A stretch of 64,000 nucleotides of DNA from assembly GCA_964490125.1 (NCBI GenBank), contig CAZBAJ010000001.1:67573-131572 (forward strand), written 5' to 3'. The notes beneath the pieces were generated by a model that saw only the letters and a list, made by a program, of their open reading frames with translations, searched no databases and was not told the DNA's origin. This DNA is from an uncultured Candidatus Saccharibacteria bacterium. Lineage in GTDB: Bacteria; Patescibacteriota; WWE3; UBA101185; UBA10185. Within the stretch, counting starts at the first letter, position 1. Each line of letters starts with the position of its first letter. A program made the translations under genes and the position numbers. This document shows, piece by piece, positions 29,053-49,792 of this stretch.

Positions 29053-29062
29053 CGCTCGATAT

Positions 29063-30193: not shown

Positions 30194-30198
30194 TAAAT

Positions 30199-31317: not shown

Positions 31318-34162
31318 GCCTGTTTTTATAGCCTTGATTTTTGGTTTTTCGCTAATAGCGATGCTAGTAAGTCCTAAAAAATCGGTCTACCTTATTTTGG
31401 CTGCTTCGGTTTTATTACACAAGGAGCTTTTTAGCGTTTATTCTTGGAACATTCTGCCAATTAGAGTCGTTATGGGAGCAGTTTTGGGCTTTGTAATGCT
31501 CGACATCTTTAAGTCGGTCAAAAATAAACGGTTGGATTGGTTTAAGGAGCAGTTTCAAAGTCCGCTCCCGATTTTGCTCTTGGCATTTTGGGCGATTGCC
31601 GGAGTTTCCATATTTTTTTCCAAAAACATACCTGCTAGTTTGTCAGTTTATGTTTTCTTAACCACGGTTGTTGCGCTTTATTTTTACTTTAGTAAGATTT
31701 TTGACGGAGATAAATTTAGCGTATTACAAATTATTAAGGTTTACATCGGCATCGCTTTTATTTTGTCGCTCATAAGTTTTGTGCAAATTTGGGTTTATAA
31801 AAACTACAACTTTATCTTTGGCGCGTTTTGGAATGTACCCGGTCATACGCCTAGAGTAGGCTCGCTGTTTTGGGATGTAAACCATTTTGCCGGTTTTTTG
31901 GTGCTGTTACTGCCGATTGTGGGTGCTTTAGTTTTGGTGTCGACTTGGAGGCGTCGTCTAAAGTTTGGGCTAATGGGTATAACAATGTTTGTGACCTTGG
32001 CGTTGACTAACGCCCGCAGTGGTTGGATTGCCGGCGCGTTGGCGCTCTTGGTATTTGTGTTAATTTTGGTGTTTAGAAAGTTTAAATACAAGGGTTTTGC
32101 GGTCATATTTTCTTTACTTTTGGCTGTTACTGGGGGGGTTTTGTCACAGTATTTAGATAAGCAAAGCCCTGTACGACGGGAGATCCGGCAGTATTTTCAT
32201 TACCGCTTGGATTCGTTTGACTCGCATTTTTTGTTGCTTACCGGCGCCTGGCAAGTGTTTGAAAAATATCCCATTTTGGGCGGCGGGTACGGCGGTTTTT
32301 TTGAACACTTTGCTAAATCCAAAATCTCTGCAACTTTTTTTGCGCGTGATCCCGCCGCCCTGAATACCCGTGTGCCGGCTCATTCCACTTGGGGAGAGCT
32401 TCTAGCAGAAACCGGCGTTTTAGGTTTTTCTCTCATGTTGATGTTTTACGCCACCGTAGTTTTTACTCTACTTTACGCGTCCTTGCGCCTAAAAAAACGC
32501 CAGGAATTTATAGTTACTTCCGCCATGACGGCTTCCGTCGTAGGTATTCTGACGGCTGGAATTTTTTATTCTTACAACTCGGAGTTTTTCTGGATCATCT
32601 TACTTTTGTATTTTCTTTACGGGTTATATTGCTTGCGGACGGAATTTGTCGATCGTGGTGAAAGCCTTTGGAACGATATTTATTCTTATTTTATTTCTAA
32701 TCCAAAGTTTCCGCCGGCAGTTTTATTTGTTATCGCTTCAGCCCTAATTTTTATCAACCTAGGTTCTAATCATCTAATTCCGTACGATGAGGCTATTTAC
32801 GCCAAGGTCTCTCAAAACATTGTGCAAACAAACGATTGGCTAACCATGTTCTGGCGGGATGGTCTTCCGTGGTTTGAGAAACCGCCTTTGTATTTTTGGC
32901 TTTCCGCGTTGGCTTTAAAAATTCTTCCAGCAACTCCGGAGCTTGCCGTCCGCCTGCCGTCCGCCATATTTGGACTTCTGTCCGTTATGCTAATCTACAT
33001 CTTTGGTAAGAAGCTGTTTGGCAAAACCGCGGGTTTTATAGCAGGTTTTAGTTTGCTCACAATCTTTCATTTTTTGTATTACTCGCGACTCGGCATGCTA
33101 GATGTCACCTGCACATTTTTTATTCTCGCATCGCTTTATTTTTACTACCTAGCCTCGCAAGAAATTGGCAAAGCTAAACTTGTTTTGGCAGGACTTTTTC
33201 TGGGACTTGCAGTTTTAACTAAAGGCGTGGTGGGGTTTTTACCTCTAATAATTATTTCACTTTGGGAAGTTTCTGGACTTTTTAAGCGTCGCCCAACCGC
33301 GTCTACCATTTTTGTCTCACTAGCCAAAATTCTTGTCGTCCTACTTACCTCTGCAGTGATATTTTTGCCATGGCATTTAAAAATGTATCAGCTTCACGGT
33401 CAACCCTTTATAACAAGCTATTTGGGTTATCATGTTTTTGGCAGGGCGACGCTGGAAACGGAAGATAAGACCGGGCCGATTTACTGGTATTTTATTGTAC
33501 TAAAAGTTTCCATGCGACTTTGGTTTTTAGCTTTGATTCCCTCTGTAGTTTATGCGATTTACGGTCTAGTTAAGAATAAAACGGATCGTCCAAAGCTAGG
33601 TTTACTACTAATCTGGGCGGTGTTAATTTTGGCAGTTTTTTCCTTATCAAAGACCAAGTTGGTTTGGTATATTATGCCCATTTACCCTGCTTTGACGCTG
33701 TTAATTGGTTATTTCTATTCCGTTGCTTTAGCTTTTGTCGACCACAAACTTTCCCAACTTAAGCATGTCTCGTCCTTCTTTTTAAAAACTCTAATAATTT
33801 ATCTAACAGTTTGCGTCGTCTTGATTTATACGCTAATAAATAAGAATCTAATTTACCCGTCCGACTTAACGGGGTCACAGGCGCAAATGATGCAACTTAA
33901 AAACAGCATTTACGGTCAAAAAGAAAAAGTGTATTTGGACAGAATCGAGCTTCCGCTAGCGCTTTTTTATGCAGACGGACCTTTTGAAATCACCGATTTT
34001 ACTCCGTTACGCCAGTCGCTAAAAACCGCTAACGCGGAAAAAACCCGGCTACTATTTATTACCAAAGAAAGTCGATTTAAACAATTTCAAAAAGAGTATC
34101 CGGCAATAAAGCTTGTCGGCTCGGCAAAGGAGTGGTATTTTGGGGAGCTGGTGGCGCAATGA
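31307..34162 (+). CDS. Fusion membrane protein: O-antigen ligase/polymerase-like (Wzy_C) N-domain + PMT/ArnT-family (GT39/GT83) C-domain
   Basis: N-half: NARSGW region typical of Wzy_C; C-half: YDEAIYAKVSQN...FEKPPLYFWL hallmark of PMT/ArnT family; about 950 aa, more than 20 TM helices. Confidence 0.65.
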   Translation: MNFEPVFIALIFGFSLIAMLVSPKKSVYLILAASVLLHKELFSVYSWNILPIRVVMGAVLGFVMLDIFKSVKNKRLDWFKEQFQSPLPILLLAFWAIAGVSIFFSKNIPASLSVYVFLTTVVALYFYFSKIFDGDKFSVLQIIKVYIGIAFILSLISFVQIWVYKNYNFIFGAFWNVPGHTPRVGSLFWDVNHFAGFLVLLLPIVGALVLVSTWRRRLKFGLMGITMFVTLALTNARSGWIAGALALLVFVLILVFRKFKYKGFAVIFSLLLAVTGGVLSQYLDKQSPVRREIRQYFHYRLDSFDSHFLLLTGAWQVFEKYPILGGGYGGFFEHFAKSKISATFFARDPAALNTRVPAHSTWGELLAETGVLGFSLMLMFYATVVFTLLYASLRLKKRQEFIVTSAMTASVVGILTAGIFYSYNSEFFWIILLLYFLYGLYCLRTEFVDRGESLWNDIYSYFISNPKFPPAVLFVIASALIFINLGSNHLIPYDEAIYAKVSQNIVQTNDWLTMFWRDGLPWFEKPPLYFWLSALALKILPATPELAVRLPSAIFGLLSVMLIYIFGKKLFGKTAGFIAGFSLLTIFHFLYYSRLGMLDVTCTFFILASLYFYYLASQEIGKAKLVLAGLFLGLAVLTKGVVGFLPLIIISLWEVSGLFKRRPTASTIFVSLAKILVVLLTSAVIFLPWHLKMYQLHGQPFITSYLGYHVFGRATLETEDKTGPIYWYFIVLKVSMRLWFLALIPSVVYAIYGLVKNKTDRPKLGLLLIWAVLILAVFSLSKTKLVWYIMPIYPALTLLIGYFYSVALAFVDHKLSQLKHVSSFFLKTLIIYLTVCVVLIYTLINKNLIYPSDLTGSQAQMMQLKNSIYGQKEKVYLDRIELPLALFYADGPFEITDFTPLRQSLKTANAEKTRLLFITKESRFKQFQKEYPAIKLVGSAKEWYFGELVAQ

Positions 34163-35391
34163 GATATGTAACGGTGTTAAAAAAAGTTTCCTTGGTTAGC
34201 GCCGGCAACATAATAAATGCGGGTTTTGGACTAATTTTTCTTACCGCTTGCGCAAAAACATTAAATGTAGCCGACTTTGGCAAATACGCCCTGCTGACTA
34301 CCCTTTTGGTTTTTATGTCCAAGGTGGTGGATTTTGGCTCAAATTCTGTTTTTGTAGCCGAGTCGCTTAAAACCCAAAACCGACAAATGTTAATTGAGCG
34401 TTTTTATCTGCTTAAAGTAGCGTTATTCGGTGTAGCTTGTCTTCTATCCGTTGTCGTACTGTACTTTTTAGGTTTTGGCTCGCCTCCGGTAATAACTATT
34501 TTTCTTGTCGGACTTATTTTTTACTCCATTAATGTCACGCTTTTTGCTATTTATCAGTCTTTAGAAATGTTTAGACATGCGGTTTTGCTAAACACCATTC
34601 CGGCAATAGTCAAAGCAATTTTGGGCGGACTTATGCTTCTGCACATTTTTACCCCGTCGTTACTAACTATTTACGCCATATTTTCCCTGTCCATGGGACT
34701 CTGCATAGTCCTCTACTTTTTTATCCCAAAGGAATTTAAGTTTTTCCGTCAAACTGATAACTCGTCACAAGGGTTTCTGCCCATTCTTACAACCAGTTTT
34801 CCCGCAGGAATTTCCCAGCTTATTTCCCAAGGCTGGCCCGCAATTTCCAATACTATTGTTAAAATTTCCAAAGGATTTACAGATGTTGGGGTTTTTTATT
34901 TGGCCGACAAAATTGCCAATGTCTTTAATCTAGTCTCGCTTTCTATTTTTACGGTTATTTTGCCCCAAAATGCCCGGCGTAAAAAGGAGAATCTCCCGCA
35001 CGACTTAAAAGAAACCGCGTTTTTAGGTGTGCTTATTTTGCTATTGGCGTTTGGATTTGTTGGTGTTTCCGGTATTTTTGTGACCAAACTTTTTGGCGAC
35101 AAATTTAGCGGTTCTTTATTGATTTTGGACATTTTGATTGTTTCCTCGGCAATTTCTGCCATCCACGCGTTTATGGAAAATTATTTTTATATTCACGACA
35201 GCACCAAGACTATTATGTATATTTCTTTGGTAAAGCTTGGCGTATTTATTGCCCTTGCTCTAGCGCTGATTCCAGTTTTGTCCCTTAAAGGACTGGCACT
35301 AGCACAACTTGTTTCTTCCTTGCTTGGTCTTACGATTGTGGTTTTGACGACCATCTTTGCAAGTCGCAAACGCAGTTGGTCTAAGGTGTGA
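34159..35391 (+). CDS. wzx: Polysaccharide flippase (MOP/Wzx family)
   Basis: 12-14 TM, MOP-like repeats; ATGA overlap with upstream gene. Confidence 0.6.
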   Translation: MRYVTVLKKVSLVSAGNIINAGFGLIFLTACAKTLNVADFGKYALLTTLLVFMSKVVDFGSNSVFVAESLKTQNRQMLIERFYLLKVALFGVACLLSVVVLYFLGFGSPPVITIFLVGLIFYSINVTLFAIYQSLEMFRHAVLLNTIPAIVKAILGGLMLLHIFTPSLLTIYAIFSLSMGLCIVLYFFIPKEFKFFRQTDNSSQGFLPILTTSFPAGISQLISQGWPAISNTIVKISKGFTDVGVFYLADKIANVFNLVSLSIFTVILPQNARRKKENLPHDLKETAFLGVLILLLAFGFVGVSGIFVTKLFGDKFSGSLLILDILIVSSAISAIHAFMENYFYIHDSTKTIMYISLVKLGVFIALALALIPVLSLKGLALAQLVSSLLGLTIVVLTTIFASRKRSWSKV

Positions 35392-35485
35392 TTTTTGATT
35401 ACATGCGGTCTAAAGGTGGTTTTTCTGCTGTTGTTACAGGTTTGGTTTATTTATAAGGGTAAATTAGATATAATGACCGAAATGT

Positions 35486-37552
35486 TTGATTTATAACGGG
35501 TGTATAGATATGCAAGTACAACAATTACCGATTTACCAATTCTTAGAAGGTACTGGGAAGAGCTTTATAATACCTGTATATCAAAGAGATTATGCTTGGA
35601 CTAGGATTAATTGCCAAAGATTGTGGGATGACCTAGTAGATTTGAAAAACAACGCGAGAGCAGACCACTTTTTAGGTACCCTTGTCACCATCGGAAGCGG
35701 TTTCCAAGAGTACACGGTTATTGATGGTCAGCAGAGATTAACAACAACATCAATTTTACTAATTGCCTTACACACATTTATAAAAAACAAACTGGAAAAA
35801 AATGATGAAGAAAAAATATTATCCGAACAGGTTTTGGACTTTTTGATTAACAAGTATTCACCGGAACAAGATAAAAGAATAAGACTAAAGCCTAATAAAC
35901 AGGATAAGGAGCATTTTGAAAAGCTTTTTACAAACGGAAATGCCGAAAATGTTAATTCAAATATAGTGAGTAACTACAACTTTTTTTATGAAAAAATAAA
36001 GTCTGAAATATTATCCCCAAAAGAAGTATTCGACGCATTTAGAAAATTAAAAATCGTACTTATCGATTTGGTTAGAGGACAAGATGATCCGCAGTTAATT
36101 TTTGAGAGTTTAAACTCAACGGGGGTCGATCTTACTGCAGGAGATCTGATTCGTAATTACATCTTAATGGATTTACAACCCATCGAACAAGAAGGAATGT
36201 ATAAGAATTACTGGCTTAATATCGAAAGGTTAACAGGAAACATTGCAGAGTTCGTCAGAAATTACTTGATTTTTAAAACTAAGACATCGGTAAAAAAGGA
36301 TGATGTTTATACAGTATTTAAAAAATTCTCCTTGGATAATTTTCACAGGGATAAGGAATCCATTTTAAAGGATCTACTATATTACGCTGAAATGTATGGT
36401 TGGTTAGTACAGATAAACAACCATCCCAATAGTGTAGTAAATAATCAATTAAACAGACTTAACAAGCTTGAGTTCACGGTATCGCATCCGTACCTACTGG
36501 ATGTTTTCAGCGATTTAAAGGATGGTATTTTAACCGAACAGGCGGTTAAGGACATTTTAATAACTATTGAAAGCTATGCGTTCAGAAAAATGCTTGTAGA
36601 CAACACCACGCAAGGTTTAAACAAGATGTTTATCACACTTTCTAAGGACATAAAAAAAGAAGCATCTTGGAAAGAAATATATTTAGACATTTTGAATTTT
36701 ATACTTCTAGAAAAAAGAGTTTCCCAAAGATTCCCCAGTGATGATGAATTTGAAGCCGCGTTGATAACAAAAGAGGTTTATAGGCTACAAGCAAAGAACA
36801 GAAACTTTTTGCTAGAATCTTTAGAAAACTATAGTTCTGCTTATCCTGTAAATGTTGACGAATTGACAGTCGAACATATAATGCCCCAAACACTTACAAA
36901 AGAATGGAAAAGTAAATTGGGGGATAATTGGCAAGAATTACATAAAAAATATCTACATACTCTAGGCAATTTAAGTTTAACTGCAAAAAATACAGAGTTA
37001 TCCAATAATACTTTTGAAAATAAACAACAGATTGACTATCAAACCAGCAGATTGAAGTTAAATTTTAAACTGGAAGGTCTTACTGATTGGAATGAGGAGA
37101 AAATAATCGAGAGAGCAAAAGATTTAATAAAAAACGCCATAGATATTTGGCCGTTTCCTAAAACAACATACATCAAACCAATCCCCGAAGAGCAGGTTTT
37201 TGATTTAACCAGCGAAGATAGCTTTAGTGGAAGCAAGCCGTCTTTCCTTTATTTTGAAAACGATGATAGAGGGACTGAATTAAAAACATGGAGAGACTTG
37301 CTTACAAAAGGTTGCAGATTCTTGCATGATTTTTCGCCAACCCAGTTCTTGGAAATGCAGAACAGTCATGAATTTAAATGGTATTTCGACAACCAGAAGC
37401 CGTTAAGGCATCCTTTGGAGTTTATGCCAAATAAGTTTGTTGAAGGAAGTATTAGTGCTAATGGCGTTATCGCTTTTCTTTCAAAAATCTGTGAGAGGTT
37501 AAATTACCCTGCAGAAAACATATCATTTTCTATCAAAAATATAAAAGAATAA
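35486..37552 (+). CDS. DUF262 (ParB/Srx-like NTPase, DGQQR) + DUF1524 (His-Me finger, HIMPQ) protein: GmrSD/SspE/BrxU-like nuclease
   Basis: IDGQQRLTT motif N-terminal, TVEHIMPQT C-terminal; alternative start MQVQQL at 35510. Confidence 0.75.
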   Translation: MIYNGCIDMQVQQLPIYQFLEGTGKSFIIPVYQRDYAWTRINCQRLWDDLVDLKNNARADHFLGTLVTIGSGFQEYTVIDGQQRLTTTSILLIALHTFIKNKLEKNDEEKILSEQVLDFLINKYSPEQDKRIRLKPNKQDKEHFEKLFTNGNAENVNSNIVSNYNFFYEKIKSEILSPKEVFDAFRKLKIVLIDLVRGQDDPQLIFESLNSTGVDLTAGDLIRNYILMDLQPIEQEGMYKNYWLNIERLTGNIAEFVRNYLIFKTKTSVKKDDVYTVFKKFSLDNFHRDKESILKDLLYYAEMYGWLVQINNHPNSVVNNQLNRLNKLEFTVSHPYLLDVFSDLKDGILTEQAVKDILITIESYAFRKMLVDNTTQGLNKMFITLSKDIKKEASWKEIYLDILNFILLEKRVSQRFPSDDEFEAALITKEVYRLQAKNRNFLLESLENYSSAYPVNVDELTVEHIMPQTLTKEWKSKLGDNWQELHKKYLHTLGNLSLTAKNTELSNNTFENKQQIDYQTSRLKLNFKLEGLTDWNEEKIIERAKDLIKNAIDIWPFPKTTYIKPIPEEQVFDLTSEDSFSGSKPSFLYFENDDRGTELKTWRDLLTKGCRFLHDFSPTQFLEMQNSHEFKWYFDNQKPLRHPLEFMPNKFVEGSISANGVIAFLSKICERLNYPAENISFSIKNIKE

Positions 37553-37553
37553 T

Positions 37554-38249
37554 ATGGTGCCAAAATCGATAAGATACTCAAAATTTAACGATATTCATGC
37601 GGTTCTGAGTAAGTCTAAACTTTTGATTGAAAAAATTGAAGAAGAATACAAAAACTCCTTAACATTACAGACTGTTTCTGATGAATTACTAGTGGATATA
37701 AAGGATTATTTAGGTAATCTTCGTTCGGCATTAGACTATCTAAGAGCAAAGGTTTCAGGCCACAATTTTCCAATTTGCAAGACAGAAAAAGAATTTGAAA
37801 ATGCCACAGCCGACCTGCCGGACGAGTTAAAAACCATGTTTAAAAAATTTCAACCTTTTCAAGGAAACGAATGGATTGGGCGGTTCAACATCTTAAATAA
37901 CAAATCAAAACACCTGACCCTTATTCCACAAAAGAGAAAAGAGATTATTGAGACAAGAGTAACCCACCCTAGCGGAGGCGGGGTGAGCTGGTCTCAGGGC
38001 GTGACTTTCGGTAGCGGAGTAAGTGTTATGGGTGTTCCGATTGATCCGCGTACGCAAATGCCGATTCCTAATAATATTGTAAAAACTGAAAGAATTACTT
38101 GGGTTAGTTTTGAGTTTGATAATTCAAATTGCCCAGAATTGCCCCCAGACATTTCTGCCCTCCCGTTTTTAAAACAATGCTTTGGAAATGTTATCCGTGT
38201 AATTTCTGAAATTGAGACCGTGGTAAAGGGGTACGATTTAGATGCTTGA
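37554..38249 (+). CDS. Hypothetical protein (231 aa) translationally coupled to the DUF262/DUF1524 gene
   Basis: Starts 2 nt after upstream stop (TAATATG); end overlaps next GT4 start by 8 nt; no recognisable motif. Confidence 0.5.
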   Translation: MVPKSIRYSKFNDIHAVLSKSKLLIEKIEEEYKNSLTLQTVSDELLVDIKDYLGNLRSALDYLRAKVSGHNFPICKTEKEFENATADLPDELKTMFKKFQPFQGNEWIGRFNILNNKSKHLTLIPQKRKEIIETRVTHPSGGGVSWSQGVTFGSGVSVMGVPIDPRTQMPIPNNIVKTERITWVSFEFDNSNCPELPPDISALPFLKQCFGNVIRVISEIETVVKGYDLDA

Positions 38250-39390
38250 GATTGGACAAAAAAAACCTTACAATAGTAGGTTAAAAATTGGAATAGATGC
38301 CAGGTTTTGGAGTCAGACGGGGGTTGGGCGGTATATCCGCCAGATTGTTGGGGAACTTGCCAAGCTGGACGACAAAAATGATTATGTGGTGTATGTAATG
38401 GCGGAGGATTTTGACAAAGTCGTCCTGCCCGCAAATTTTAAAAAAGTAAAAACTAATATTCGTTGGCACACCTTGTCGGAGCAGTTTATTTTGCCAATCC
38501 TCTACCTTCAAGAAAATCTGGATGTCCTAGTCGTCCTAAATTTTAATGTCCCAATTTTTTACCCCAAAAAGTTTGTTACAACCGTCCACGATTTAACTTT
38601 ACTGCGAACCCGTACCGGTCGCGCAACCCGCCTTCCTTATGCACTTTATCTTATAAAATATCTGGCGGGGTGTTTAACGCATTATGTGGCTATAAAAAGG
38701 TCGGCCAAACTATTTACTGTGTCCAATTATGTCAAGAACGACATTATAAAAACCTTTGGAGTAAAGCCGGAAAAAATTGTTTTGACGCCAAATGCTGTGG
38801 ATCAAAGATTTTATAAAAGGCCGGACGACGAGGTGGTGCGGGTTTTGCAAAAATACGGCTTAGCTAAGCCTTACCTGTTCTATGTGGGCAACGCGTGTAC
38901 GCATAAAAATTTATGGCGGTTGGTGCAGGCGTTTGACATTTTGAGTGAGTCCGAGCCGGATTTGCGTTTGGTTTTAGGCGGTAAGCGGGATTTTAATTAC
39001 GACAATTTGGAGAAGAAGTTTGCGGGGCTAAGGTGTGTGGAAAAGATTAAGTTAATTGGTTTTGTTGACGACGACGATTTGCCGGCTTTATATAGTGGGG
39101 CAAGTTTGTATGTAAATCCATCTATGTACGAAGGTTTTGGCATTCAAATTTTGGAGGCCTACGCTTGCGGATGTAGGGTTGCTTGTTCCAACTCCACTTC
39201 TTTACCAGAAGTTGGTGGGGGTTTGGCGGAGTATTTTGATCCTGTGGATGTTCAAAATATTGCCAATGTAATAAAAAATGCTTTACATAAAGATGCGCCC
39301 GATTTTGAAACCAAAGCTCGTCAGCATGCCGGACGATATTCATGGAAAAGTTCTGCTCAAGCTGTTCTGCAAACCATTCAAAATATATGA
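38242..39390 (+). CDS. Glycosyltransferase family 4
   Basis: YVNPSMYEGFGIQILEAYACG. Confidence 0.75.
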   Translation: MLEIGQKKPYNSRLKIGIDARFWSQTGVGRYIRQIVGELAKLDDKNDYVVYVMAEDFDKVVLPANFKKVKTNIRWHTLSEQFILPILYLQENLDVLVVLNFNVPIFYPKKFVTTVHDLTLLRTRTGRATRLPYALYLIKYLAGCLTHYVAIKRSAKLFTVSNYVKNDIIKTFGVKPEKIVLTPNAVDQRFYKRPDDEVVRVLQKYGLAKPYLFYVGNACTHKNLWRLVQAFDILSESEPDLRLVLGGKRDFNYDNLEKKFAGLRCVEKIKLIGFVDDDDLPALYSGASLYVNPSMYEGFGIQILEAYACGCRVACSNSTSLPEVGGGLAEYFDPVDVQNIANVIKNALHKDAPDFETKARQHAGRYSWKSSAQAVLQTIQNI

Positions 39391-40685
39391 AGATCGCCTT
39401 AGTTTTTGACGACTTAATACAGTTTGGCGGGGCGGAAAGACTCTTGCTTGCCGTCCACGAACTTTACCCAGACGCTCCTGTTTACACATCCTTGGCAAGT
39501 GACGAGTGGATTGCGCGCTGTAAGGAAAAAAACATCCGGTTGGTAACGTCATGGATGCAGGGTCTGCCGTTTAAAAGGTCGCTCAACCGGTTTTACGGAC
39601 TTTTGGGTTTGCACGCCCTGGCTTTTGAGTCGTTTAAATTTGACGACTTTGATGTGGCGATTTCTATTTCTGCCCGATTTGCCCACGGAATTGCTACTAA
39701 ACCCTGCACTTTACACATTTGTTATATGAACTCGCCCGGTAGAATGTTTTGGGAGTCGCAGGATTACTTTGACCGGGAGAATTTTTTGCGGTACGACTTA
39801 GTAAGACGATTGTTTTGGTTTTTTGCCACGCCGTTTTTGTCTTTATTGCGACTTTGTGATTATGCCGGCGCGCGGAGGGTGGACTATTTTATTGCCAATT
39901 CCAAAACTCCGCAGGCGCGTATTGCCAAGTACTACAAGCGCGACTCTTCCATAATTTACCCTTTTGTAGACGACATAGACCAATTAAAGGGGCGCGCCCC
40001 CGTGACGAGCGATTCCGCAGTCCGCCTTGGCGGACGAGGACCTAGCGAGGATGGGGGCGTCGCCCCGTATTATTTAGTAGTCACAAGGTTGAATGCTTGG
40101 AAGCGCGTGGATATCGCTATTGAGGCATGCAAAACAATTGGCGCAAATTTAAAAATCATTGGCGAGGGTCCGGATAGGTTGCGTTTAGAAAAATTGGCGA
40201 CAGGAAATAATAAGATCGCTTCGGCTACGCCTCGCGATGACATTGGGGATAATGGTCAGAGCGATGGTTCTGATGACAATCCGAGAGGAAATCAGACCGA
40301 CAGTCGCGATGATACTAGTATTGACTTTCTGGGCTATGTGAGCGACGAGGAAAAAACCCACGCCATGCAAAATTGCACAGCCCTTATCGTCACTCAGAAA
40401 GAGGATTTTGGCATTACCGCGCTGGAGGCCATGGCGCTAGGAAAACCAGTAATTGCTTACCGAGCTGGTGGCGTGTTAGAAACCGTTATAGAAGGCGTTA
40501 CGGGAGAGTTTTTTGACGCCCAAACCCCGCAGTCGCTCGCCCAAAAATTGTCCTCCTTTACCCCGTCAACCTACAAAGCGCAAGACTGCATCAACCAGTC
40601 GTCCAACTTCTCCAAACAAAAACTTCTTACCAAATTGGACGAGGCAGTCAAAACCCTTTACAATAGAAAAACTAACCTGCCGTAA
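39387..40685 (+). CDS. Glycosyltransferase family 4 with acidic low-complexity insertion
   Basis: GITALEAMALGKPVIAYRAGG; insertion ATGNNKIASATPRDDIGDNGQSDGSDDNPRGNQTDSRDD; start MKIALVF (ATGA overlap). Confidence 0.7.
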   Translation: MKIALVFDDLIQFGGAERLLLAVHELYPDAPVYTSLASDEWIARCKEKNIRLVTSWMQGLPFKRSLNRFYGLLGLHALAFESFKFDDFDVAISISARFAHGIATKPCTLHICYMNSPGRMFWESQDYFDRENFLRYDLVRRLFWFFATPFLSLLRLCDYAGARRVDYFIANSKTPQARIAKYYKRDSSIIYPFVDDIDQLKGRAPVTSDSAVRLGGRGPSEDGGVAPYYLVVTRLNAWKRVDIAIEACKTIGANLKIIGEGPDRLRLEKLATGNNKIASATPRDDIGDNGQSDGSDDNPRGNQTDSRDDTSIDFLGYVSDEEKTHAMQNCTALIVTQKEDFGITALEAMALGKPVIAYRAGGVLETVIEGVTGEFFDAQTPQSLAQKLSSFTPSTYKAQDCINQSSNFSKQKLLTKLDEAVKTLYNRKTNLP

Positions 40686-40688
40686 CTT

Positions 40689-41333
40689 ATGTTATATCCG
40701 GTACTAAAAAGGCTTGTCGACATAGTTGGCTCCATCTTTGCGCTAATTTTGTTTTCTCCCATTATGTTTTTTACCGCCCTGTACATTAAGCTAAAATCGC
40801 CCGGTGGACCGGTTTTTGCCGACATCCCGCTACGCGTGGGTAAGGACGGCAAAGAGTTTAGGTTTTTAAAATTCCGCTCCATGATTCCAGGTGCTCATGA
40901 TTGGTTGGAAAAACACCCCGATTGGATGGAAAAATATAAAGCTAATAATTATAAACTGGATCCTAAGGAAGATCCTCGCATTATTCAAACCGGCTACATT
41001 CACTTTATGCGCAAATCCAGCATAGACGAGCTTCCCCAGTTTATAAATGTCCTGCGGGGAGAGATGAGCATCGTGGGTCCGCGTGCGTATTATCCGTTTG
41101 AAATTAAAGATCAGGCGGTAAAATTTAACATCGCACCCCAAGTCGTCCAAAAAGTAATTTCCGTAAAACCGGGTATAACGGGGGTGTGGCAAGTGGGTGG
41201 GCGGTCAAAGGTAAATTTTGACAAACGCATACAACTTGATGCAGACTATGCAGGTAAGAAATCAATTTTGTACGACATCTTGCTGATTTTAAAAACGCCG
41301 TACGCTGTGGTTACCATGAAAGGAGCCTACTAA
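40689..41333 (+). CDS. Polyprenyl-phosphate sugar-1-phosphate transferase (bacterial sugar transferase, WbaP/CpsE C-terminal type)
   Basis: LKFRSM, IVGPRA, PGITGVWQV motifs; 214 aa. Confidence 0.8.
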   Translation: MLYPVLKRLVDIVGSIFALILFSPIMFFTALYIKLKSPGGPVFADIPLRVGKDGKEFRFLKFRSMIPGAHDWLEKHPDWMEKYKANNYKLDPKEDPRIIQTGYIHFMRKSSIDELPQFINVLRGEMSIVGPRAYYPFEIKDQAVKFNIAPQVVQKVISVKPGITGVWQVGGRSKVNFDKRIQLDADYAGKKSILYDILLILKTPYAVVTMKGAY

Positions 41334-43295
41334 ATGGAACAGAAATTTTGGAAACCTAATATTAAGAATGAAAAAAATAGTGCGACTTTAGCGTCGACTA
41401 ACGGGTCGAACGGGTCTAAACCTAAAAAGGGCATAAAGATTTTAGGGATTACGGGTGGAGTTTTGTTGGTTATTTTGGCGGTAGTGGGCATTTTAGCCTA
41501 CAAATTTGTTATAGATCCGGCTTTGGCTCTAAAAGTTAGGGCGGAAAAATTGCAGGAGGATGGTCAACTTGCTAACAAAGCCTTTTTAGATAGGGACTTG
41601 GTGCTGTTGGAAAAAGTTTTTGTTCAAACCGAGCAGGATATTGAGGGTTTACGACAAGACAGAGATGCTAAGTTTGGTTGGGCTAAAAATTTACCTAAAG
41701 TAAAAGAGTTTTATACCGATACTGAATATTTTTTAAACTCCGCGCTTTACGCAATTGACGCGGGTAGGGAATTTTCCAGAATCATTACACCGTTTGCAGA
41801 CGCGGCTGGACTAAAAGTTGCCGAGGGTCAGGAAACTTCCACATTAAGTTTTGCTGACGCTTTTTCTGCGTGGATTGCCTTAATGCCTAAAGTAGCAAAT
41901 GATATCGACCCTTTGTTAGTTAAAGTCGACAAAGTTGGTACCGAGCTTGCCAAAGTGGACGCCAGTAAATATCCGGAGGAGTTTAGAGGTACACCCATTA
42001 AGTCGAACATTATTTATGCCCAAACCACGCTTTCTACCCTAAGCGATTACGCACCCGACCTTAAGCAAGCTTTGGTAATAGTTCCTAAAATTCTAGGTGT
42101 GGGGGTTGGTGTTCCGGAAAAGCGCTACATGATTATTATGCAAAACAATGCAGAAATGCGTCCTACCGGTGGTTTTTGGACAAATTACGCCACTTTTAAG
42201 ATTAAAAACGCCATGCTGAATTCCGACTTTTCTTCCAAGGATATGTACAGCATAGACTACACCTTGGATGCTATTGACGCATACACGGATTTTTCCATTG
42301 GTATGCCAGCTCCAATTAGGCGGTATCTTATGCTGGAGCGCTGGTTTGCCCGGGATGCCAATTTTTCACCGGATTTTCCAACTTCGGTTGCCGATTTTAT
42401 GAGGTCGTACAATAGAGCAATGCAAATTAATCCTGTGGAGATTAAGCCGGTTGACGGGATTTTTGCCATTGATACCAATGTGGTTAGTGAGCTTCTGGAA
42501 GTTACCGGTCCAGCAACAGTTAACGGCATTAGCTACAACAAAGATAATGTCGTACTGGAATTGGAAAAAATTGCCTCGCTGGCTTTGCGAGAACAGTCAA
42601 ACCGCAAAAAAGTTTTGGGCGACTTAATGGAACGCATGTTAGTAAATGTTTTTGAGTCGGACAAAAATTTGTGGCCAAAGCTTGTTGACAAAGGTGTCGA
42701 CTTGTTAAACAGAAAGCATATTGTTATTTACATGAAGGACCCGGAAACCCAAGCTTTGTTAGAAAAATACAATTTTGCCGGTCGACTTATAGATACGCCA
42801 AACAGTGATTATTTGTCGGTGGTTACCAGTAATTTGGCAGGTGACAAGACCAATTTATTTGTGCGACGGGAAATTACCAGCACGACAACAAATTCCGGCG
42901 GTAAGTGGGCAAGAGAGGTTAAAGTAAAATACACCTACGGACCTGCGGAAGGCGATTACGCCTTGTTTGCGACTACTTATAAAGATTACCTTAGGGTGTA
43001 TGTGCCAAAAGGCTCGACCTTAGTTAGTGTAGAAGGTTCCGACAACGATGATACAGGTAGTGCGGACGAGTTAACTAAAACGGCTTTACACGGTTACATT
43101 ACTTTGGCGCCAGGTGGTACTAAAGAAATAACCTTTAAGTACACTTTGCCTGACGGGGTGGTAAAGCCCGGCGAGTACAAGCTGTATATCCAAAAGCAAG
43201 CCGGCCAGCCGAAGGAAAAATATAACCTAAGTGTCAACGGTAAGCAGTCCACGGTGGAGACGGATGTGGATTATAAGTTTACGGCTAAGATATAG
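41334..43295 (+). CDS. Membrane-anchored extracytoplasmic protein of unknown function (DUF4012-like?)
   Basis: N-terminal TM anchor then 600-aa soluble domain; last gene of glycan cluster. Confidence 0.35.
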   Translation: MEQKFWKPNIKNEKNSATLASTNGSNGSKPKKGIKILGITGGVLLVILAVVGILAYKFVIDPALALKVRAEKLQEDGQLANKAFLDRDLVLLEKVFVQTEQDIEGLRQDRDAKFGWAKNLPKVKEFYTDTEYFLNSALYAIDAGREFSRIITPFADAAGLKVAEGQETSTLSFADAFSAWIALMPKVANDIDPLLVKVDKVGTELAKVDASKYPEEFRGTPIKSNIIYAQTTLSTLSDYAPDLKQALVIVPKILGVGVGVPEKRYMIIMQNNAEMRPTGGFWTNYATFKIKNAMLNSDFSSKDMYSIDYTLDAIDAYTDFSIGMPAPIRRYLMLERWFARDANFSPDFPTSVADFMRSYNRAMQINPVEIKPVDGIFAIDTNVVSELLEVTGPATVNGISYNKDNVVLELEKIASLALREQSNRKKVLGDLMERMLVNVFESDKNLWPKLVDKGVDLLNRKHIVIYMKDPETQALLEKYNFAGRLIDTPNSDYLSVVTSNLAGDKTNLFVRREITSTTTNSGGKWAREVKVKYTYGPAEGDYALFATTYKDYLRVYVPKGSTLVSVEGSDNDDTGSADELTKTALHGYITLAPGGTKEITFKYTLPDGVVKPGEYKLYIQKQAGQPKEKYNLSVNGKQSTVETDVDYKFTAKI

Positions 43296-43344: not shown

Positions 43345-43962
43345 ATGGCAAAAGGTTTTGAAGTACCTAAAGATTATTCTGAACGAACCGAACAGGGTCA
43401 GAGGGCTATAGACGACTACAGGCATTGGATCAAGGGGAGTGGACCCCACTCTAGGTTAGGGATATTCTACAGAAGTGCGAAAACTGCATATGAGCGCGAA
43501 AAGGGCGTGGTCTCCTCTGCAGAATACGCAAGAAGATTCGCCAGGTTTCTTGAAGTATCCCCCCCCGTTGTTCTTACATCTGAAAAAATCGACGATTTAG
43601 ACTATTTGGCTGAATTAATTTCTAGCAAACCAAAATCCATTGTTTGTTTGGATACTAGCGAAAGGTTGCGTTGGGCGATGAGTGATGCACAAGTTAGAGT
43701 TTATCAAGTGGCAACGGATTATGATATCGCATTCACTCCTCCTTTTACCAACGAAGGTTCGCGTGACCCTCTTGGGTTTGATGGTTGCGTTGTAATGTAC
43801 CCTAATGGGATTGAGAGTAACCCAAGTACTGTTCCGAGCATGGAGGCAATGATAGAGGATAGGAGTGTTGCAGAGGCGTGGAAACAGCAGGCGGACGCTT
43901 ATGTCGAGAATAACTGCACATGGAGAGAGTTGGTAGCCGATGTTGTAGAGCAGCCCCAATAG
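43345..43962 (+). CDS. Hypothetical protein (205 aa)
   Basis: ORF only. Confidence 0.35.
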   Translation: MAKGFEVPKDYSERTEQGQRAIDDYRHWIKGSGPHSRLGIFYRSAKTAYEREKGVVSSAEYARRFARFLEVSPPVVLTSEKIDDLDYLAELISSKPKSIVCLDTSERLRWAMSDAQVRVYQVATDYDIAFTPPFTNEGSRDPLGFDGCVVMYPNGIESNPSTVPSMEAMIEDRSVAEAWKQQADAYVENNCTWRELVADVVEQPQ

Positions 43963-44012: not shown

Positions 44013-44699
44013 ATGATAAGGTCAGAAAGTGTCGAGTGTATTGTGTTAAAGAACCTTAATTACAAAGATTCTGACAAGTTGTACACCCTTTTTTCCCCCG
44101 TTTACGGGAAATTTACCGCTACGGCAAAAGGCGTACGGAGGATTAGTTCCAAACGACTTGGCAGCCTGGATACTCTAAATCTTGTTCAAATCAGCTTTTC
44201 CGAGTCGTCCAGAGGTATAAAAATTATCCACCAGGCGCAGGTTATAGAGTCGCACAAACATTTAAAAAAAGCCATGTCAGGCATAGCTAAAGGCTTGTAC
44301 ATGGCGGAATTGGTACACAGGTTTTTTTACCAAGAAACTTACCAGCACGAGTCGGCGCCCGAGGTTTACGGACTTATTACAAAGTCGCTTGGCAGTTTAA
44401 ACAAATTTTACGCCAAGTATCCGGAAGGCAGTTTTAACTTTGTGCCCGTGCGAATTATGAATCTTTTTGAGTCGCGCTTAATGCGCATTTTGGGTTACGA
44501 AATGAGCTTAGATAACTTTTTGCTGACGCGGTTGGAGCTGGGCGACACGGAAATTGAGTATTTACGGTCGCTTAAAGTAGGGCAGGGTTTTGGCGACTTA
44601 AAGCTGATTCAAGGGGGTCATAAAGCGGGAGATGCGGTAATAAAAGAATATGTTTCCGAGGTTTTGGATGAACGCATTTACTCTAGCAGGTTGTTTTAA
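44013..44699 (+). CDS. recO: DNA repair protein RecO
   Basis: N-terminal OB-fold pattern (ECIVLKNLNYKDSDKLYTLFSPVYGKFTATAKGVRR). Confidence 0.6.
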   Translation: MIRSESVECIVLKNLNYKDSDKLYTLFSPVYGKFTATAKGVRRISSKRLGSLDTLNLVQISFSESSRGIKIIHQAQVIESHKHLKKAMSGIAKGLYMAELVHRFFYQETYQHESAPEVYGLITKSLGSLNKFYAKYPEGSFNFVPVRIMNLFESRLMRILGYEMSLDNFLLTRLELGDTEIEYLRSLKVGQGFGDLKLIQGGHKAGDAVIKEYVSEVLDERIYSSRLF

Positions 44700-44941
44700 A
44701 ATCTTTCGTAAGTTTTTTCCATTATTTCCCGGGCTTTTAAGATACCTTTTAACGATCGCATTTTTTTAGGAACCTTAATCGATCCAGCGTAGTCGAGTAT
44801 ATCTTTCGCCTTTCTTAATATCGCATAACCGCTTTTTTGTTCCAGAATCACTCTATCTCCGGGTTTAAAATCTAAGTGGTGTCTTATTTCTTTTGGCAAA
44901 ATTATATAATTTCTTTTTGTGAGCGTGACAGGATAATTCAT
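44696..44941 (-). CDS. AbrB/MazE-family (SpoVT_AbrB swapped-hairpin) small DNA-binding protein
   Basis: VTLTKRNYIILPKEIRHHLDFKPGDRVIL; no cognate toxin adjacent. Confidence 0.5.
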   Translation of the reverse strand: MNYPVTLTKRNYIILPKEIRHHLDFKPGDRVILEQKSGYAILRKAKDILDYAGSIKVPKKMRSLKGILKAREIMEKTYERF

Positions 44942-45236
44942 ATCCTTACAATTTTACCTTTTCTTTGACATTTTTTCAGCAAGCGTGCTTTAATACGGTG
45001 GTAATGAAAGACTCAAACGATGATGAAAAAGTAACGGGGGGGGAGAAGAGGAACATGAGGATGCTTCAGTTGGGCGGGGAAGCGACGAGCATGCGGGTCG
45101 AGAGAATGAACCCGATAGTTGGCTAAAAGATCTTCAAACACTATTAGGCAAGCGTTTTTCCGGTACGGTAACCGCAGTTGATGGCGATCTATCAATACTA
45201 GATATTGATACCACACCACCGATACGCCACGAAATT

Positions 45237-46892
45237 ATGATTGGTAGCGAGGGGCAGTTTGTAGACTCTTTTGGTAAAAAGTTTGAAACCGGTTTTGAAG
45301 GGTGGAAGCCGGGTCAGTTTATCAACTCTAAATTCACAGTTCAAAAAAGGGGAGACGATTTAGTACTTCTTGTTGCAGACTCGGTTGTAGGTGACATCCG
45401 TTACGCTGATATATTTGAACTTCACGGTTTATCTGAGGAAGCTAAACAGCAACTTCTAAAGGTAGGTGTTGCCGAAATTGATGTGGATATAGAGATAACC
45501 GGGGATATGCGTTACGAGATTAGCAATATGTTTCGGTATGAGGCGCGAATTGACAGGATTAATTCCATACAGCTGGCTTTTGATGGTGATTATGAAAATT
45601 TGGTTTTAGGTCAACAGGTTCTTGTCGAAGGAAGGGTAACTGATTACGAGAAGTCTGAAGGACAGGGTGTGTCAGAATATGGTCATTGCAAAGTGGAGTT
45701 GCCCGACGGTACAGTTGTTGCTGTGACAATGTGGAACGGATACTTAACCTATGAGGACGGGGCGTTAGGTGTCATTGATCCGCCGTATCCTTTAGAAGGA
45801 GATAAAGTGCAGATTAATTGCACTTACGGAAACCCCGGGGCAAGGTACGGAAAAGATGACGGGTTGTCACTCTTTGCCTACTACACAAGATCGACATTTA
45901 TGCTCGAGCCGTCCCAGGAAAGAGCAGAGTTGTATGCAAGTCGCAGAAAATTGGTTGACGAGGCTATGCAGGCGTTTTTAGATACACAGGATTTAGCGGA
46001 AGCTAGGAAGATATTGGCACAGGTTACTAAAGGAACTTTGATAACAGGAGGAACTTCAGTGAAGGGGGGTTTAACCGCTGATGAGCAGGATTTTATTCGG
46101 AATGCCGTAGAATTAAAGTTTACTGATCCAGATGAAAAACCTCTAGATTTGTTTGGCGATGAGTACGAGGCGGAGGAGATAAACAAAGTATGGGGTGTGG
46201 AGGTTTATGCCATGAGTAGAGCGGATTTCTACCGTTTTTGTATGAGTTTTGCTACGGGTGGAATAGTCTACGAAAATACCGGGAGCCTGGATTACCCTTA
46301 CAGATTTTTCGATAAAGCCCTAACTCGTGAACAACAGATTGAGGTGTTGACGACAGCGGTCAGCACGCTTGCCCCCAAGGTCATCGGTAAAAGGACATAC
46401 AGTACCAGGAACATGTTTGGTCAAGAGTCCGTTGACAGAGGAAGCATCGTAGACCCAAATCTAATCGATTGGGACACAGCTTATTTATTTGAACAATCGT
46501 TGTCGTATTTGTCTGGATATTCTTTACCCTCCGTAGCTAATGTGTTTATTGATTTAGTAATCGACATGTATGATAAGGACCGCTACAGAAAAGACATCGA
46601 TGCCGATGAGAGGAGAGATTTTTATGAGTATTATATTTGCGATTGCTATCGAAGAAATTTACAAAAGGCTTTGGTTATGGAGCGCGGACAGGTTTTGGGG
46701 GTTAGCAACGCAGAGATTCTAGGTCTTTATGCTAAGCAACTGCCCTTACTAAGGGCACTTTCAAAAAAAATGCAAGTAGATTCGTGGAATAACGACGGGC
46801 GCTATACTGTCTGGGAATATGTAGACGACTGTGCCGATCTAACCGAGAGGGCTACCGTAGTTTCCCGTGAAAATAATTTCTTAAACAATTAA
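45237..46892 (+). CDS. Hypothetical protein; reading frame open upstream to 45027, probably interrupted by G8 tract (see findings)
   Basis: ORF; in-frame protein-like sequence upstream of ATG with no stop back to 45027; ATG 45004 ORF in +1 frame. Confidence 0.45.
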   Translation: MIGSEGQFVDSFGKKFETGFEGWKPGQFINSKFTVQKRGDDLVLLVADSVVGDIRYADIFELHGLSEEAKQQLLKVGVAEIDVDIEITGDMRYEISNMFRYEARIDRINSIQLAFDGDYENLVLGQQVLVEGRVTDYEKSEGQGVSEYGHCKVELPDGTVVAVTMWNGYLTYEDGALGVIDPPYPLEGDKVQINCTYGNPGARYGKDDGLSLFAYYTRSTFMLEPSQERAELYASRRKLVDEAMQAFLDTQDLAEARKILAQVTKGTLITGGTSVKGGLTADEQDFIRNAVELKFTDPDEKPLDLFGDEYEAEEINKVWGVEVYAMSRADFYRFCMSFATGGIVYENTGSLDYPYRFFDKALTREQQIEVLTTAVSTLAPKVIGKRTYSTRNMFGQESVDRGSIVDPNLIDWDTAYLFEQSLSYLSGYSLPSVANVFIDLVIDMYDKDRYRKDIDADERRDFYEYYICDCYRRNLQKALVMERGQVLGVSNAEILGLYAKQLPLLRALSKKMQVDSWNNDGRYTVWEYVDDCADLTERATVVSRENNFLNN

Positions 46893-46949
46893 TCTGATGT
46901 AGTGAGGACGGACATTTGACAAACCTAGTCGCATGTTCTTAAATTGCCA

Positions 46950-47111
46950 TGTTCGACGATGAACGCTGTGGCAGGCGGGAGTCGAGCAAAGTTACTCAAA
47001 TACTCAAAGCGTCCGCCGTTGGCGGAAAGTAGGGTGGAACCGCGCGGGCTAAGGCCTCCGTCCCTAAAGTCGTACAAAGATTTTAGGTTGCAAAAACGCA
47101 AAAGGAGGAAA
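46950..47111 (+). promoter_or_regulatory. T-box leader (Gly), probably translational type
   Basis: Promoter TTGACA(46915)-N17-TTAAAT; T-box AGTAGGGTGGAACCGCGCGG (UGGA matches U73 of tRNA-Gly); no U-tract terminator; CCTCC at 47054 could pair the SD AAAGGAGGA. Confidence 0.55.
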
Positions 47112-48954: not shown

Positions 48955-49401
48955 CTATTTTTGCACAACATTCTTATCAATTTGCCTTTGGAACTCCTCA
49001 AAATCTCCAAGGTTTATCTGGATGTACTCGTATACTTTGTTTAGATCTATGTCTAAGTAGCTGTGGACGGTTATGTTCCTGAAACCCGTGGCTTGGGTTA
49101 ATTTCTCCGACAAATTCTTGTCGATTATTTTCCTGTCGGCTAGAATTTTAAATACCTCTTTAAGTTCTTTAGGTCGTTCAAAGCCGTCGGAAGCTATTAT
49201 AAGCTTAGCGATATCTAGGCACGCCTCTATAATAACTTGAAGTTGTCGGATGGCAAAATCATATTCGTATGGATTTTCACAGAATTCGGTTTCGTCAGTT
49301 CCAATATAACCGTTTAGTAGAAGAAGGCGTCTGTCTATCTCCTCCATTCTTTGTTTTATAGCCTGTTTATCTACCATTTTTACTTTGTAGTCTTTCCACA
49401 A
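48955..49401 (-). CDS. hepT: HEPN-domain toxin (HepT/DUF86-like)
   Basis: R-x4-H motif in GFRNITVHSY; overlaps upstream MNT gene by 35 nt. Confidence 0.7.
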   Translation of the reverse strand: MWKDYKVKMVDKQAIKQRMEEIDRRLLLLNGYIGTDETEFCENPYEYDFAIRQLQVIIEACLDIAKLIIASDGFERPKELKEVFKILADRKIIDKNLSEKLTQATGFRNITVHSYLDIDLNKVYEYIQINLGDFEEFQRQIDKNVVQK

Positions 49402-49792
49402 TTTTATTATAGCGCATATCGTACAGGGGTTTTATGTCTGTATAGTCGTCTAACGCGCGGTTTTCAAAGTTCGCCTTGTTTTTAGCATCGGCTGTGTAGA
49501 TTGACTTACCAAAAAGTACGGATGTGTAATAAAGCGGGTACGACATAATTTGCCGAGGTATAGCTTCTATTGTTTTATCTTTTGCAAGAGCTGTAAGTTC
49601 TTCCTGAAGTTTGAACATGTAATTATAAAGATCACCGGGAAGTCTTTCGTCGTCTAGTACAACGCAAATATCCACATCGCTTGCTGGTGTGGCGCTTCCG
49701 TTGACCTGAGATCCGTACAGGTAAGCGTGAAGAATCTCTGGGTGATTTCTAAAACCCTCTATTAAATTTTGTAAGGTTGCTTGGATGTCCAT
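49367..49792 (-). CDS. mntA: Minimal nucleotidyltransferase antitoxin (MntA-like)
   Basis: YLYGSQVNGSATPASDVDI (GS-x-DVD motif). Confidence 0.7.
   Translation of the reverse strand: MDIQATLQNLIEGFRNHPEILHAYLYGSQVNGSATPASDVDICVVLDDERLPGDLYNYMFKLQEELTALAKDKTIEAIPRQIMSYPLYYTSVLFGKSIYTADAKNKANFENRALDDYTDIKPLYDMRYNKIVERLQSKNGR

Follow-up and report, generated by a model that had tools for sequence, protein, structure and literature searches.

A length-variable poly-G tract near the start of an accessory gene suggests phase variation in an uncultured Patescibacteria genome

Introduction

We analysed a gene of the uncultured Candidatus Saccharibacteria bacterium represented by GenBank assembly GCA_964490125.1, which is annotated as an open reading frame (ORF) of 551 amino acids (aa) from ATG 45237 and is preceded by a homopolymer of eight guanines (G8). 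The stretch of DNA that was analysed, referred to here as the window, comprises 64,000 nucleotides (nt) of contig CAZBAJ010000001.1 (positions 67,573 to 131,572), and all positions given below are counted from its first letter. An earlier note on this DNA had pointed to the homopolymer as a possible slipped-strand phase-variation switch or, alternatively, as a homopolymer sequencing or assembly error. Our comparison with related genomes favours the first of these explanations, since the codons upstream of ATG 45237 appear to evolve as coding sequence and, in a sister species, the same tract is found both in and out of frame on near-identical backgrounds.

Results

A G8 tract lies between two reading frames

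The tract, GGGGGGGG, occupies codons 11-14 of an ORF that begins at ATG 45004 and is the only G run of at least 8 in the window. The remaining G/C runs of at least 7 are a C8 at 43559-43566 and a G7 at 32132-32138, the latter inside a 961-aa ORF (31277-34162). From ATG 45004, the frame reads MKDSNDDEKVTGGEKRN... into the tract, is translated across it as MKDSNDDEKVTGG... and ends after 40 codons. The frame of the 551-aa ORF is open from 45027, immediately 3' of two stop codons, and its upstream part reads as protein-like sequence (KSNGGGEEEHEDASVG...DSWLKDLQTLLGKRFSGTVTAVDGDLSILDIDTTPPIRHEIM), with no ATG, GTG or TTG in this frame between 45027 and 45237 (70 codons). Translation can therefore enter this upstream part, referred to as the N-terminal extension, only by crossing the tract from ATG 45004. 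The addition of one G in silico (G9) yields a single ORF of 629 aa, with VTGGGEEEHEDASVGR as the junction peptide and a Gly run spanning T-G-G-G-E, while the removal of one G (G7) leads to an early stop and no joined ORF. On all of these points, namely the separation of the two frames by the tract, the protein-like frame open back to 45027, the different-frame ORF running through the tract and the 629-aa product of a single G insertion, our translations agree with the earlier note.

A G/C run of 8 is by itself not improbable in 64 kb, as we estimate that about 0.45 runs of at least 8 would be expected with independent bases at 42% G+C and two were seen. The arrangement around the G8 tract is unusual: the start-less open lead before ATG 45237, at 70 codons, is the longest among the 60 window ORFs of at least 100 aa, for which the median is 4 codons and the runner-up has 35.

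The upstream codons resemble constrained coding sequence

A database search returned as relatives P0001, which is identical to the 551-aa call, P0002, from the sister species, which is 74% identical and also called with 551 aa, and P0003, which is 51% identical and 649 aa long. As the earlier note had advised, we looked among these orthologues for a contiguous ORF, and P0003 provides one: it covers 98% of the G9-joined query and carries the N-terminal region, extension included, in one frame and without a homopolymer. An internal Met of P0003 (MPERQDD...) aligns with the MKDSNDD encoded from ATG 45004, and the position of Met 45237 is occupied by Ser.

Relative to the P0002 locus, the 64 codons that separate the tract from ATG 45237 carry 25 substitutions, distributed 9/0/16 over the codon positions of the large-ORF frame (chi-square p = 4e-4) and corresponding to 10 synonymous codon changes and 12 others that are mostly conservative. 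The gene body differs from the same locus by 105/79/245 substitutions over the three codon positions, with 153 synonymous and 141 non-synonymous codon changes. The ratio seen in the extension resembles that of the gene body, and both display what reads as a pattern of purifying selection. The first 11 codons differ between the two species by 2 synonymous and 2 non-synonymous codon changes.

An exhaustive profile search delineated a protein family of 67 representative clusters. Nearly all aligned full-length members (about 600-640 aa) have their N-terminus 40-70 residues before the site of Met 45237, and these aligned N-termini share a short helix, W/F-x-x-L-x-x-x-L, and an I-D-S/T-T-P motif. 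Because of the 9/0/16 codon-position pattern and the presence of the extension in family members, the extension is, as far as comparative sequence can tell, under constraint and has been translated throughout the divergence of the window species and the sister species.

Three tract lengths occur at one conserved site

The sister species is syntenic with the window (RecO, a MazE-like gene, the target gene and the glycyl-tRNA synthetase gene, GlyRS), and its tract lies at the same position and codon, with a protein identity of about 74%. All tract lengths given here are those of consensus assemblies. The window contig from NCBI, which is 240,555 bp long, has G8 and is out of frame. Four sister-species contigs (L001 to L003, from JGI 3300013125, 3300013136 and 3300013138, and L004, from SRR11049291) have G10 and are likewise out of frame, whereas a fifth, L007 (JGI 3300013123), has G9 and is in frame. 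L007 encodes P0004 (632 aa, N-terminus MVVMKDPNNDEKVTGGGEEEHDD...), the second member of the 90%-identity cluster of P0002. One conserved tract thus exists in lengths of 8, 9 and 10.

Between L007 and each of the four G10 contigs, identity is 99.85-100%: the alignments of 2.3-3.3 kb contain 0-4 mismatches and one gap, and the 2328-bp alignment with L004 has no mismatch at all and again one gap. Across 3.3 kb, no indel other than the tract separates L007 from the G10 contigs. By our reading, the G10 allele encodes a peptide of about 21 aa that ends at TGA and differs from the 40-aa G8 product; such short off-state products are, on this comparison, not conserved between the species. The further family members examined are without a 5' homopolymer, and the tract would therefore have arisen in the common ancestor of the two species. 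Even if G8 were an error, the G9/G10 polymorphism in the sister species would mark the locus as length-variable.

Orthologues starting at the downstream ATG, which the earlier note had named as evidence against a switch, were encountered only as gene calls on out-of-frame alleles. The window species is represented across the tract by one assembly, since Logan contigs of the same strain end about 540 nt or more short of it. Exact look-ups of the window MazE-like protein and of the 40-aa off-state peptide gave no record, a family-alignment scan of genome contigs gave no relative, and a scan of metagenomes returned only the L001 contig again. The sample accessions led to no metadata in the literature.

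As a control, we followed the C8 run at 43559-43566, which has the same length in three further SRA (Logan) assemblies (SRR11845627-29) that are 100% identical to the window. This run lies in frame (S-P-P-V) inside a 205-aa ORF (43345-43962) without a Pfam match, and its Pro-Pro is conserved in a 56%-identical orthologue. We considered it as a second switch and rejected it, the run being in frame, constant in length and conserved in its Pro-Pro.

ATG 45004 is preceded by a promoter-like element

Read by eye, the sequence upstream of ATG 45004 contains TTGACA, an 18-nt spacer and TGcTTTAAT, which ends 9 nt before the start codon, and the sister species has this promoter-like region in nearly unchanged form. 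The element is not listed by our promoter scan because the scan requires A at position 2 of the second hexamer, where this element has T; the scan listed instead GTGACA-N16-TACAAT at 44925-44952. Its distance of 9 nt from ATG 45004 would imply an mRNA that is leaderless or very short-leadered. Across the window, a -10-like box (at least 5/6 consensus match, ending 4-12 nt upstream) precedes 18 of the 48 gene starts, compared with 7% of random positions. Shine-Dalgarno sequences were seen at few of these 48 starts. Such counts suggest that leaderless or very short-leader mRNAs may be widespread in this Patescibacteria genome. Upstream of ATG 45237, the same scan detected no -10-like box and no Shine-Dalgarno sequence. 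On these grounds, ATG 45004 looks like the start of the gene and ATG 45237 does not.

The protein is predicted to contain two tandem OB folds

An AlphaFold2 model built on a 20-sequence alignment reached a predicted local distance difference test (pLDDT) score of 84 and a predicted template modelling (pTM) score of 0.76, and supersedes an earlier run with three sequences (pLDDT 59). Residues 1-60 of the open frame are modelled as disordered or with low confidence, comprising an acidic tail and one helix. They are followed, at about residues 98-294, by two consecutive five-stranded barrels with the strand order of an oligonucleotide/oligosaccharide-binding (OB) fold, and by a helical region (residues 297-616) that forms a C-terminal domain of about 320 aa without a match.

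The best Foldseek matches in the PDB are Teb1 AB, TEBP-alpha, RPA70 DBD-AB, Deinococcus radiodurans SSB and POT1 (E from 1e-4 to about 2e-3 for the first four, and to about 2e-2 with POT1 included), with low TM-scores (0.14-0.36) and sequence identities of 8-13%. Among viral structures, baculovirus LEF-3 is one of the best matches, with proteins named SSB lower in the list. Nothing credible was found for the target protein in Pfam, NCBIfam, PHROGs, PADLOC or a PDB sequence search, and the family is uncharacterised. The model thus gives moderate support to a tandem OB fold that is possibly nucleic-acid binding.

Distant family members lie in differing gene neighbourhoods, from which no hint of function emerged. 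One distant member, P0012 (L091 157-3879, on a contig with a G+C of 0.58), lies directly upstream of a gene for a VirD4/TraG-type type IV secretion coupling protein, a single observation that might link the family to conjugative DNA transfer.

The gene belongs to an accessory segment

The coordinates of the features described here are collected in Table 1. The AbrB/MazE-like gene lies 62 nt from ATG 45004 and is syntenic in the sister species, while other family members have no AbrB/MazE-like neighbour. In two related genomes (GCA_040960375.1 and GCA_040960315.1; loci L095 and L097), BLASTN homology to the window extends up to 44697 and resumes at 47157. RecO is there followed directly by GlyRS (L095 7340-7440), and both the AbrB/MazE-like gene and the target gene are absent. 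As a syntenic relative lacks this segment, which measures about 2.4 kb, the target gene is accessory. No flanking direct or inverted (terminal) repeats were found around the segment as the mark of a mobile element.

We also considered a type II toxin-antitoxin pair and rejected it, as the AbrB/MazE-like gene is divergent, not co-oriented, and its partner is without a Pfam or PADLOC match.

Table 1. Features of the poly-G locus, in window coordinates
Feature	Position	Strand	Basis or remark
AbrB/MazE-type (SpoVT-AbrB) gene, 81 aa, divergent	44696..44941	-	Pfam PF04014, E = 6.6e-7
Accessory segment, about 2.4 kb: AbrB/MazE-like gene, target gene, GlyRS leader	44698..47111	.	BLASTN against L095 and L097
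Promoter-like element	44965..44994	+	TTGACA 44965-44970, 18-nt spacer, TGcTTTAAT 44986-44994
Start codon and first 11 codons, MKDSNDDEKVT	45004..45035	+	Translation; MKDPNNDEKVT in the sister species; aligns with MPERQDD of P0003
G8 homopolymer, proposed slipped-strand switch	45036..45043	+	In frame as G9 (Gly-Gly-Gly); out of frame as G8 and G10
N-terminal extension: acidic tail, short helix SWLKDLQTLLGKR, motif IDTTPP	45044..45236	+	Translatable only with the tract in frame
TAA stop, end of the 40-aa G8 (off) product	45124..45126	+	Translation
551-aa ORF as called, folded core: two likely OB folds and a helical C-terminal domain	45237..46892	+	Identical to P0001

Other features were observed around the segment. 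Upstream of the GlyRS gene there is a T-box-like leader (46950-47068, + strand; RF00230, 32.9 bits, E = 5.8e-6), whose score falls far short of the gathering score of 93, stem I being almost wholly missing, while the T-box motif AGUAGGGUGGAACCGCG is intact. It is itself preceded by a promoter-like site, TTGACA-N17-TTAAAT, and the syntenic relative has no room for such a leader before GlyRS. Judging from the sequence, GlyRS probably starts at ATG 47112, after AGGAGG, and not at TTG 46944 of the mechanical ORF. The nearest relatives of this GlyRS come from a Patescibacteria-group metagenome-assembled genome (70%) and from one of candidate division WWE3 (65%), in keeping with a Patescibacteria bacterium. 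Just downstream of GlyRS, at 48955-49792 (- strand), overlapping genes for a HepT-like ribonuclease and an MNT-type nucleotidyltransferase form a pair reminiscent of a toxin-antitoxin module. The region studied here directly follows a long run of genes on one strand (26306-43295), which includes two glycosyltransferase genes, one of the GT1 family and one for a bacterial sugar transferase, and then a DUF4012 gene, and which is syntenic in the relative represented by L095.

Discussion

We consider slipped-strand poly-G phase variation the best explanation for this locus, with a probability of about two in three, because three tract lengths occur at a conserved site and in-frame and out-of-frame alleles are found on an identical background. 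The proposal had been made in the earlier note, and it is strengthened by P0003, which is intact without a tract, and by the sister species, in which the tract is G10 in four assemblies and G9 in one on near-identical backgrounds. Under phase variation, the true start of the gene would be ATG 45004 and its product would be about 629 aa long. The gain or loss of a G at the tract during replication would shift the ribosome in or out of the long frame, so that G9 would be ON and give the full protein, as presumably would G6 or G12. G8, the state of this genome, and G10 would be OFF, with peptides of 40 and about 21 aa, respectively, as products. Synthesis of the folded core would probably fail in that state, because ATG 45237 has no -10-like box or ribosome-binding site close by, and the cell would be left with no functional protein. 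The changes in tract length would take place in the DNA, be reversible and occur at high frequency. It is probable, by the same argument, that what has been annotated as a 551-aa gene, from an internal ATG, is a mis-annotated OFF allele whose intact form encodes 629 aa.

The locus shows what is expected of a contingency gene in several respects. The homopolymer lies inside the ORF (G8, codons 11-14), and its repeat number toggles the frame between full-length and truncated products (629 aa with G9 and 40 aa with G8 here; 632 aa with G9 and a short product with G10 in the sister species). Length polymorphism on a clonal background is found in the sister species, at the level of consensus assemblies, and the tract has been kept in two species while the gene is under purifying selection. 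The accessory status of the segment also fits a contingency gene.

Several points weigh against phase variation. The tract lengths are those of consensus assemblies, the tract of the window species is seen in a single assembly, and the consensus is out of frame in 5 of the 6 assemblies. The four G10 assemblies show no drift from sample to sample, which would fit a stable frameshift too, and the lone G9 contig could be a consensus error. Furthermore, classic contingency genes mostly encode surface or restriction-modification functions, and the product considered here looks cytoplasmic, with no signal peptide or membrane segment recognised by eye.

These points have to be weighed together with four other explanations. 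That the window genome carries a homopolymer sequencing or assembly error, the true tract being G9, the gene intact and nothing switching, is in our view unlikely. Indel errors arise most readily in homopolymers, a single added base would give G9, and one assembly covers the tract for the species, with P0001 found on one contig; however, four independent sister-species assemblies concur on an out-of-frame G10, and out-of-frame consensus lengths at the tract would therefore be real and reproducible. An error would moreover have to act in opposite directions in two species, and the assemblies of three other runs of this strain agree with the window at the C8 run, 1.5 kb from the tract. The DNA could instead be stably out of frame, with the full protein obtained by recoding, through slippage of RNA polymerase on the G run or a ribosomal frameshift, and we give this a similarly small chance. 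It would account for the finding that the majority alleles are out of frame in both species even though the extension is under purifying selection, and transcriptional slippage does rescue frameshifted poly(A) genes in Buchnera (PMC2831843). The G8 allele, by our reading, also has in its zero frame a heptamer, G_GGG_GGG, that formally qualifies as -1 slippery. Yet the documented cases of efficient polymerase slippage are mainly A/T runs of at least 9, and G8 requires a -1 shift where G10 requires +1 (or -2), which one ribosomal mechanism cannot both serve. In addition, RNA folding downstream of the tract revealed no stimulatory structure (z = 0.03), and the in-frame G9 allele on an identical background shows a change at the DNA level. 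A programmed -1 ribosomal frameshift site was accordingly rejected, as the heptamer is present but the downstream structure is absent and the G10 orthologue needs the opposite shift. Leaky expression through polymerase slippage could still accompany a switch in the DNA, although such slippage is unnecessary for explaining the data.

The decay of an accessory gene, in which the tract frameshifts would be independent and effectively irreversible inactivations on the way to loss, is very unlikely. The segment is dispensable, being missing from a relative, and the gene is off in 5 of the 6 assemblies; but no further lesion is found in 1.9 kb in either species, and a pattern of purifying selection is retained in extension and body alike at a protein identity of about 74%. 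The promoter is conserved, and a conserved tract with two out-of-frame lengths and one in-frame length is not what decay would leave. Least probable of all, we believe, is that the annotation is right, with a 551-aa product from ATG 45237 and an upstream region that is an untranslated leader with a small upstream ORF. Gene callers picked ATG 45237 here and in four sister-species contigs, and the confidently modelled fold starts at about residues 62-70 of the open frame, near Met 45237. Set against this are the 9/0/16 codon-position pattern in the upstream 64 codons, the extension of nearly all full-length family members, the Ser in place of Met 45237 in P0003, the lack of a -10-like box or Shine-Dalgarno sequence before 45237, and small-ORF products that are not conserved.

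Phase variation would represent a known mechanism in a new lineage and in a new, uncharacterised gene family. No description of homopolymer phase variation in Patescibacteria emerged from the literature that could be searched, in which the nearest case is a hypervariable gene with 9-mer repeats in a Gracilibacterium (PMC6851277). If the switch is real, reduced-genome uncultured environmental bacteria also keep contingency genes, and sister metagenome samples can capture their ON and OFF alleles. More speculatively, the ultrasmall Patescibacteria (candidate phyla radiation, CPR) may use homopolymer contingency loci for bet-hedging at the population level. The toggled gene would then encode not a surface antigen but an accessory cytoplasmic, likely-OB protein of a previously undescribed family, possibly binding single-stranded DNA (ssDNA) and paired with an AbrB-like regulator, and could perhaps form a phase-variable module of defence, DNA uptake or a mobile element. 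We regard this wider picture as possible but doubtful. In terms of annotation, a 551-aa gene called from an internal ATG would stand in place of a frameshifted 629-aa gene, and the same error is probably common in metagenome-assembled genomes. The likely-OB-fold family of about 600 aa (67 representative clusters) is itself flagged here as worth functional study.

With respect to its predicted fold, the protein would be like RPA70 DBD-A/B, Teb1 AB, Oxytricha TEBP-alpha, POT1 and Deinococcus SSB in having, in the model, two tandem five-stranded barrels. It is unlike these tandem-OB ssDNA binders in its low TM-scores, its 8-13% identity and its helical C-terminal domain of about 320 aa without a match.

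Rescue by transcriptional slippage is known for Thermus dnaX and for the transposases of insertion-sequence elements, and extends to the poly(A) genes of Buchnera. Like those Buchnera genes, the gene described here is out of frame at a long homopolymer and still under selection; in Buchnera, some transcripts restore the frame, hence the continued selection (PMC2831843). Unlike these cases of slippage rescue, which mostly concern A/T runs, the locus has an in-frame DNA allele on an identical background, and the change would therefore be in the DNA itself.

In a few host-adapted pathogens, phase variation through poly-G tracts is textbook knowledge. A homopolymer close to the 5' end of a gene has also been described as a general device for reversible gene inactivation (PMC2831843). 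Mycobacterium tuberculosis glpK (7C) and the 5' poly(A) of Listeria monocytogenes inlA resemble our locus in carrying a coding-region homopolymer with reversible loss of function, and show that such switches extend beyond surface antigens (10.1101/717272, PMC10334774, PMC2831843). These two cases were established with isolates, reversion assays and phenotypes, whereas the case described here rests on consensus assemblies.

The closest comparison is with the intragenic poly-G tracts that drive phase variation in Campylobacter and Neisseria (PMC8355987, PMC3786947). The locus described here differs in that its host is an uncultured environmental member of the Patescibacteria, not a host-adapted pathogen, and its product is cytoplasmic-looking with likely OB folds, not a surface, glycosylation or restriction-modification protein. 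On the other hand, the cited reports describe in Campylobacter jejuni (Cj1295 and genes for capsule, lipooligosaccharide and flagellar glycosylation) and Neisseria meningitidis (hmbR, hpuA) the same arrangement, with a G run of about 8-11 in the ORF near its 5' end (PMC8355987, PMC3786947, PMC3068675). Our locus also resembles the Campylobacter and Neisseria loci in lying in a genome that is not G+C-rich, in a frame toggled by a change of one G, and in a tract that is kept among related strains or species while its length differs.

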